Assembly: GCF_003334255.1 (NCBI RefSeq)
Contig: NZ_QOWU01000051.1
From: Escherichia coli
GTDB lineage: Bacteria; Pseudomonadota; Gammaproteobacteria; Enterobacterales; Enterobacteriaceae
Reading direction: 5' to 3' (one strand)
Length of the DNA: 41,368 nucleotides
Below the pieces are notes generated by a model. The model worked only from the letters and a program-made list of their open reading frames with translations. It did no database searches and was not told the DNA's origin. Numbering within the stretch: position 1 is the first letter of the stretch; each line of letters starts with the position of its first letter. A program made the translations under genes and the position numbers. Of this stretch, positions 40,900-41,368 are shown piece by piece.

Positions 40900-41133
40900 C
40901 CTGTATTACTCCATGTATTGCCAAAATCTCTCTCTGTATCTAATTACAGGTAACTGAAAAGAAAGATATTTTTGCACCTCATAATCCGTTATTAAACGCG
41001 GAAGAGAGACGTGAATTGTTGATGATGAGAAGAAGAAATGATGAGCAGAGTGTCCATATAAAATCCTTTTCTCGCCCGAAAATCCATTCCAATGATGAGG
41101 ATCTTCAGGAATACGGCATAAATCCCAATGCCT
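40900..41133 (-). promoter_or_regulatory. pgaA mRNA leader with multiple GGA motifs (CsrA-binding-type sites), one overlapping the SD/start
   Basis: Minus strand reads ...cattggaatggattttcggg..., ...acggattatgagg..., ...acatggagtaatacaggATG; the leader extent is from literature memory, not seen directly. Confidence 0.5.
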
Positions 41134-41291
41134 TTTTCAAAATAAATTAGGATTAAAATAATTAAATCAGTAAATTCCGATGCATGATTTCGGATTTTTC
41201 GAAAGTCCTGATGAAAGGCTGCGCTACGGCACTCACGGATTTAATTGTTATTCCTAATGTATCTATGAATTAATGTTTTATAAGGATTTTC

Positions 41292-41368
41292 GGTAATGAC
41301 TCCAACTTATTGATAGTGTTTTATGTTCAGATAATGCCCGATGACTTTGTCATGCAGCTCCACCGATT
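41292..41368 (-). mobile_element. insB: IS1 right-end fragment (IRR plus insB 3' codons), inverted; the element body lies right of the window
   Basis: Exact reverse complement of 1..77; minus-strand translation of 41307..41366 gives [19 protein letters not shown]-stop; begins with GGTAATGACTCCAACTTATTGAT. Confidence 0.85.

Follow-up and report, generated by a model that had tools for sequence, protein, structure and literature searches.

An IS1 end 392 bp upstream of pgaA in a K-12-like Escherichia coli leaves the known pgaABCD control elements in place

Insertion sequences located 100-500 bp upstream of intact promoters activate flhDC and bgl, and activation by upstream insertion, of the flhDC type, was reportedly described by Barker in 2004. 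For IS1, a copy is found upstream of flhDC in MG1655 (PMC8669472). At the pga locus, the described case is that of EAEC 55989, in which IS1 lies between the -35 and -10 elements of pgaA and is argued to create outward promoters (Richter et al. 2014, PMC4287979). In order to account for these promoters in 55989, Richter et al. invoke IS1 hybrid promoters of the Prentki type (PMC4287979). Here, an IS1 end upstream of pgaA was analyzed in a stretch of E. coli DNA of 41,368 nucleotides (assembly GCF_003334255.1, contig NZ_QOWU01000051.1), the whole of which is called the window in the text. We consider it rather probable that this IS1 is a strain-specific insertion at -158 in the pgaA-dgcT spacer of a K-12-like E. 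coli and that the control of pgaABCD is normal.

The reverse complement of positions 41292..41368 was identical, at 77 of 77 positions, to the last 77 bp of the complete 768-bp IS1 from strain EC09, and this match is not due to chance. The stretch (minus strand; GGTAATGACTCCAACTTATTGATAG... as it is written in the window) is the IRR end of the element (GGTAATGACTCC...). The terminal inverted repeat of IS1, of about 23 bp (GGTAATGACTCCAACTTATTGAT at IRR), is present at about 41292..41314 (minus strand). A full-length IS1 measures 768 bp and has insA/insB' and a programmed -1 frameshift; complete copies were seen in other genomes only. With this orientation, the transposase is read towards pgaA, and the transcription of insA-insB' is directed at pgaA, on pgaA's own strand. 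Between IS1 and the pgaA ATG (40899) lie exactly 392 bases of native DNA (40900..41291). Relative to the pgaA start site, at about 41133, the last native base is -158 and IS1 starts at -159. A previous reading of the same DNA, made from its sequence only, had placed the inverted end at 41292 and IS1 392 bp upstream of pgaA, and both the coordinates and the distance were exact.

The same sequence-only reading had also proposed that IS1 replaces the DNA that lay further upstream. The inverted end at 41292 is indeed present, but the replacement is unsupported: only 77 bp of IS1 are included before the window stops, and these are compatible with a replacement as well as with a simple insertion. 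When the reference is read across the empty site, the 9-bp target of IS1 would be AGGATTTTC (41283..41291, no strand being applicable), which is located between TTTATA and TATAAT in native DNA; the second junction, with any duplication of the target, lies outside the window.

In uninterrupted genomes, 586 bp separate pgaA from dgcT (ycdT), a divergently transcribed gene for a diguanylate cyclase. In this layout, the distance from the insertion point is 392 bp to pgaA and 194 bp to dgcT, and the empty site of the reference reads ...TTTATAAGGATTTTC immediately followed by TATAATCATTTATAAG.... Comparison with uninterrupted references showed that all 392 native bases, which are AT-rich (40900..41291, 34.7% G+C) and cover -158 to +234 of pgaA, contain 0 mismatches to the spacer of strain L73 and are 100% identical to K-12 MG1655. 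In addition, the interval 16400..41291 was about 100% identical to the genomes of the K-12 family and to strains JP538 and B-1109, and this near-identity marks the host, as judged from the interval, as a K-12-like E. coli. The pgaA coding sequence (38476..40899, minus strand, 807 aa), which is the first gene of pgaABCD, is intact and matches the annotated pgaA; it appears in the list of open reading frames together with pgaB (36449..38467, minus strand) and pgaC (35131..36456, minus strand).

Over the interval 16400..41291, the K-12 laboratory strains and JP538 align in two pieces that cover about 1.2 kb more than the window, and B-1109 aligns in one. The K-12 family probably carries an extra insertion sequence within this interval, which is missing from the window. 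In several genomes, pgaA is a pseudogene: IS5 lies within it in L73, and internal stops are present in S1-INA-02-A, YZ22PE244 and CAVP773, all three with IS1 nearby. These pseudogenes suggest a decay of pga in some lineages.

The K-12 pgaA promoter was drawn by Richter et al. with a 235-nt 5' UTR (PMC4287979 Fig. S2). The promoter sequence of this W3110 drawing is unchanged in the window, with +1 at about 41133. The leader with repeated GGA motifs of the CsrA type had previously been described as apparently intact from the letters alone, and this was confirmed: the 234 nt of the pgaA 5' leader (40900..41133, minus strand), including the hairpin/rut region at +61..+107, are 100% identical to K-12 (PMC4052769; PMC4287979 Fig. 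S2). In a motif scan, seven GGA motifs were detected in the leader, at +9, 44, 49, 68, 79, 147 and 222, plus one across the AUG. Two 5'-proximal CsrA sites are located within segment 61-81 (Figueroa-Bossi et al., PMC4052769). The GGA motifs at +68 and +79 fall inside this published segment, so that a transcription start at about 41133 is consistent with it.

The native promoter and the NhaR-responsive region, from -1 to -124 (41134..41257, minus strand), also match the W3110 drawing. When the K-12 pgaA segment -124..+234 was moved into Salmonella, it kept the control by Rho and CsrA and the promoter response attributed to NhaR (PMC4052769). This fragment corresponds to 40900..41257 and is wholly retained in the window, with 34 bp to spare. 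As -124..+234 is both sufficient and retained, no known control site is lost. A T-N11-A motif, TCGAAAAATCCGA, at -69..-57 (41190..41202, minus strand), agrees with 10 of the 13 positions of the proposed NhaR consensus (PMC6307784); it is a match of a motif scan and not a footprint. No coordinates of an NhaR footprint at pgaA were found in the literature searched, and the construct moved into Salmonella was used as a stand-in for the footprint limits. Goller et al. are said to have described, in 2006, one NhaR site over the -35 element and a second one immediately upstream.

The remaining native spacer, from -125 to -158 (41258..41291, minus strand), is identical to the references and contains no known site. 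The suggestion that distal activator sites may have been removed is thus not supported, because native DNA reaches -158 and -124..+234 suffices for the responses to NhaR, CsrA and Rho (PMC4052769). As the sequence half of a case against its own proposal, the sequence-only reading had named the presence of all the known sites within the retained DNA; this is what was found, and no known cis element is lost. The literature search for H-NS or upstream silencer data at pgaA gave nothing relevant. Against a normal control of pgaABCD speak conceivable distal sites beyond -158, for example for nucleoid-protein silencing of the 35% G+C spacer, and the precedent of flhDC and bgl, which are activated by insertions upstream of intact promoters.

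Under the preferred reading of a strain-specific insertion, pgaABCD would keep its NhaR-activated and CsrA/Rho-repressed control, because the promoter, the NhaR-responsive region, the leader, the CsrA sites, the hairpin and the rut site are all retained. At the pgaA-proximal junction, the IRR end and the transposase direction face pgaA from 158 bp upstream of the transcription start. The contribution of IS1 to pgaA, either by read-through from its weak, self-repressed promoter or by a weak hybrid promoter, would probably be small. The end of the contig inside IS1 would result from a break of the short-read assembly at a repeat.

A search of 5,426 complete E. coli genomes did not recover the exact junction with IS1 in either orientation. 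In 23 sampled complete genomes, IS1 was found at 21 other positions in or around the locus, and 16 of the 21 lie within the 586-bp spacer. With positions counted in bp from the pgaA ATG in the upstream direction, and negative values denoting sites within the gene's coding sequence, IS1 has its IRR end facing pgaA, as in the window, at -135, 132, 156, 185, 197, 215, 227, 239, 279, 293, 364, 367, 1047 and 1103, and its IRL end facing pgaA at -140, -7 (three strains), 89, 107, 279, 331 and 512; the site at 279 occurs in both orientations. As the 23 genomes were chosen by IS1 orientation, an orientation bias in the leader is not inferable from them. K-12 BW2952 is the strain that carries IS1 107 bp before the pgaA ATG.

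The sampled IS1 copies measure 768 bp, are 91-100% identical to the EC09 IS1 and show duplications of 8-9 bp where both flanks could be mapped. The differing positions, copies and 8-9 bp duplications therefore point to many independent insertion events. Ten of the 16 spacer copies lie within the 234-nt leader or the core promoter, where they separate pgaA from its native promoter or from part of the CsrA/Rho control region. In 21 of the 23 sampled genomes, either the 768-bp element is simply inserted, with 8-9 bp duplicated, or the locus is cut without sign of rearrangement. A strong hot spot for IS1 in the spacer was considered and rejected: about 25 genomes, as read from the match tables, compare with about 7 expected if the roughly 62,000 matches on chromosomes, almost all of which are copies of IS1, were evenly spread. 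The difference is only about 3-fold, and no correction was applied for common descent of the strains or for counter-selection of insertions within genes. Such a modest excess is expected for an AT-rich intergenic target. The insertion upstream of pgaA in the window is an ordinary strain-specific one, at a new site for a type of event already described at the locus.

Promoter sequences were compared by two scans. A strict consensus scan missed both the native promoter of pgaA and the candidate hybrid promoter on the pgaA side that is described below. A crude sigma-70 log-odds scan, based on approximate consensus frequencies, was therefore applied as well, and its scores are used as a ranking aid only.

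A first alternative, which we hold to be unlikely, is that the main effect of IS1 is exerted on the side that is not seen in the window. There, after a simple insertion with an 8-9 bp duplication, the IRL hexamer TTGGCA, 16-17 bp from TATAAT, would drive dgcT, and the increase in c-di-GMP would activate PgaCD post-translationally. This proposal was modelled as a simple insertion with a 9-bp duplication. At the partner junction, the reverse complement of the initial 77 bp of IS1 (GGTGATGCTGCC...) would lead into AGGATTTTCTATAATCATTTATAAG, and the dgcT-side junction would read ...AAGTTGGCAGCATCACC AGGATTTTC TATAAT..., i.e. TTGGCA-17-TATAAT. The arrangement follows from the reference, which continues from AGGATTTTC directly into TATAAT at the empty site. 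If the insertion is simple, inference from the model gives a dgcT-side promoter near consensus, with a crude log-odds score of 15.5 against 10.6 for the best native match in the dgcT direction (TTGACA-17-TCTATT, which precedes the ATG of dgcT by about 45-70 bp); on neither strand of the 41-kb window does any match score 15 or more. In addition, the published case of 55989 relies on this outward -35 of IRL. Against an effect on dgcT, the junction lies outside the window and is entirely modelled, and the new transcript would bear a leader of about 180 nt of uncertain stability. Moreover, DgcT activity also depends on a sensor domain, and dgcT may not adjoin IS1 here. A literature search for a published transcription start of dgcT/ycdT gave nothing usable.

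Because the -10-like hexamers TATAAA (towards pgaA) and TATAAT (towards dgcT) flank the target AGGATTTTC, a simple insertion would generate candidate hybrid promoters on both sides. The broader proposal built on this model, in which outward hybrid promoters arise on both sides, that of dgcT being near consensus, and a gain in PGA would come mainly through c-di-GMP and not through pgaA transcription, appears quite improbable to us. If a strong promoter were nevertheless present on the dgcT side, the locus would be a simple natural example of an insertion sequence that rewires the c-di-GMP input to PGA synthesis. A native match in the dgcT direction, TTAATG-16-TATAAT (score 9.9), straddles the IS1 target (L73 locus 2971..2998, which corresponds to 41270..41291 and the next 6 bases). 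As judged from its hexamers, this match is a possible distal promoter of dgcT, whose -35 and -10 elements would be separated by the insertion.

A second alternative is that IS1 raises the transcription of pgaABCD, by a hybrid promoter with a start near 41270, by read-through or by displacement of a silencer, which would give a more PGA-proficient strain. The candidate hybrid promoter (41277..41305, minus strand) was recognized by reading the sequence outward from IRR towards pgaA, where AAGTTGGAGTCATTACC of the element is joined to GAAAATCCTTATAAAAC of the flank. It associates TTGGAG of IS1 (41305..41300) with TATAAA of the flank (41282..41277). The orientation and the spacing fit the Prentki-type hybrid promoter invoked for EAEC 55989, since TATAAA lies exactly 17 bp from the -35-like hexamer of IS1; the spacer is AT-rich and IS1 recurs at many sites of the region, which also speaks for this alternative. 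However, the -35 hexamer fits the consensus at 3 of 6 positions and the -10 hexamer is without the conserved last T. The score of TTGGAG-17-TATAAA is 6.2, equal scores are found 4.6 times per kb per strand in the window, and the consensus scan was silent at this position. Thus, as far as its hexamers and score indicate, the putative promoter on the pgaA side is no better than chance.

Read-through from IS1 was considered in the same way. When IS1 is read towards pgaA, its sole match with a score above 6.6 is CTGCCA-16-TATGAT, at base 8, at the far IRL end, with a score of 8.0. This is the known position of the IS1 transposase promoter. The transposase promoter of IS1 is weak and is repressed by InsA, so that read-through into pgaA should be low. 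Furthermore, a longer transcript that originates in IS1 must cross the whole leader and therefore stays under CsrA/Rho control, and no silencer is known here that the insertion could displace. Promoter or read-through activity brought by IS1, as suggested in the earlier reading, is thus geometrically possible given the orientation, but the hybrid promoter remains at a background score and was not reported by the consensus scan. Taken together, we give little credence to a rise in pgaABCD transcription caused by IS1.

The other end of the window was also found in IS1. By match to the 768-bp IS1, positions 1..77 (plus strand) repeat the 77 bp of the IRR end found upstream of pgaA, and they abut nucleotide 9 of cspG. 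At this junction, cspG has lost contact with its promoter, with the long 5' UTR typical of cold-shock genes and with the initial 8 nt of its coding sequence, and the in-frame Met5 of cspG leaves an open reading frame of 66 aa with the cold-shock domain (82..282). Both ends of the window consist of exactly the same 77 bp, facing inwards. Most likely, we infer, these 77 bp are the k-mer (k = 77) left at a repeat by a de Bruijn short-read assembler. Two IS1 copies in inverted orientation thus enclose the 41-kb block from cspG to pgaA and permit its inversion by recombination. This bracketing pair is compatible with two independent insertions, for which the geometry has a 50% chance, with an IS1-mediated inversion or with a deletion.

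The third alternative, that IS1 is the boundary of a rearrangement in which either the 41 kb from cspG to pgaA have been inverted or a deletion has removed the DNA on the far side of IS1, so that dgcT would no longer lie beside pgaA, is likewise of low probability: the IRR ends facing inwards have the geometry of a duplicative inversion or of a recombination between inverted copies, and IS1-bounded deletions exist at the locus in CAVP773 (dgcT joined via IS1 to csgE) and STEC346 (pgaB joined via IS1 to the 5' part of pgaA), but two independent insertions are inverted half the time and IS1 is present without rearrangement in 21 of the 23 sampled genomes.

The preferred reading thus remains a strain-specific insertion with normal pgaABCD control. 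It represents one more independent IS1 insertion in a spacer that IS1 hits repeatedly, and it spares the whole known control region of pgaABCD. For this allele, it is unsafe to infer altered biofilm regulation from the presence of IS1 upstream of pgaA in a genome.

When compared with the known systems, the locus shares with EAEC 55989 the same element and the same pgaA-ycdT (dgcT) spacer; for 55989, Richter et al. argue that the IS1 end offers an outward -35 that can pair with a -10 of the flank. In 55989, however, IRL faces pgaA, the native promoter is destroyed and ycdT is frameshifted, whereas here IRR faces pgaA, IS1 lies at -158 and the promoter is intact. The likeness to flhDC and bgl (IS1/IS5) concerns the location of an insertion sequence in AT-rich DNA, at a distance of 100-500 bp before a promoter that is intact and under tight control. 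In these systems, a known repressor or silencer region is displaced and activation was measured; pgaA has no known upstream element of this kind, and the comparison is one of sequence.

The junction also resembles the promoters of Prentki et al. 1986, with a -35-like hexamer 8 bp from the IS1 terminus, a -10-like hexamer just past the 9-bp target and a 17-bp spacer between them. In contrast to those promoters, both hexamers on the visible side are poor and not above chance, and the strong form is only predicted for the unseen dgcT side. Finally, the IS1 copies of other complete genomes, including K-12 BW2952, occupy the same 586-bp spacer, but none of them lies at 392 bp. Most of these copies cut known control elements, whereas the copy in the window does not.
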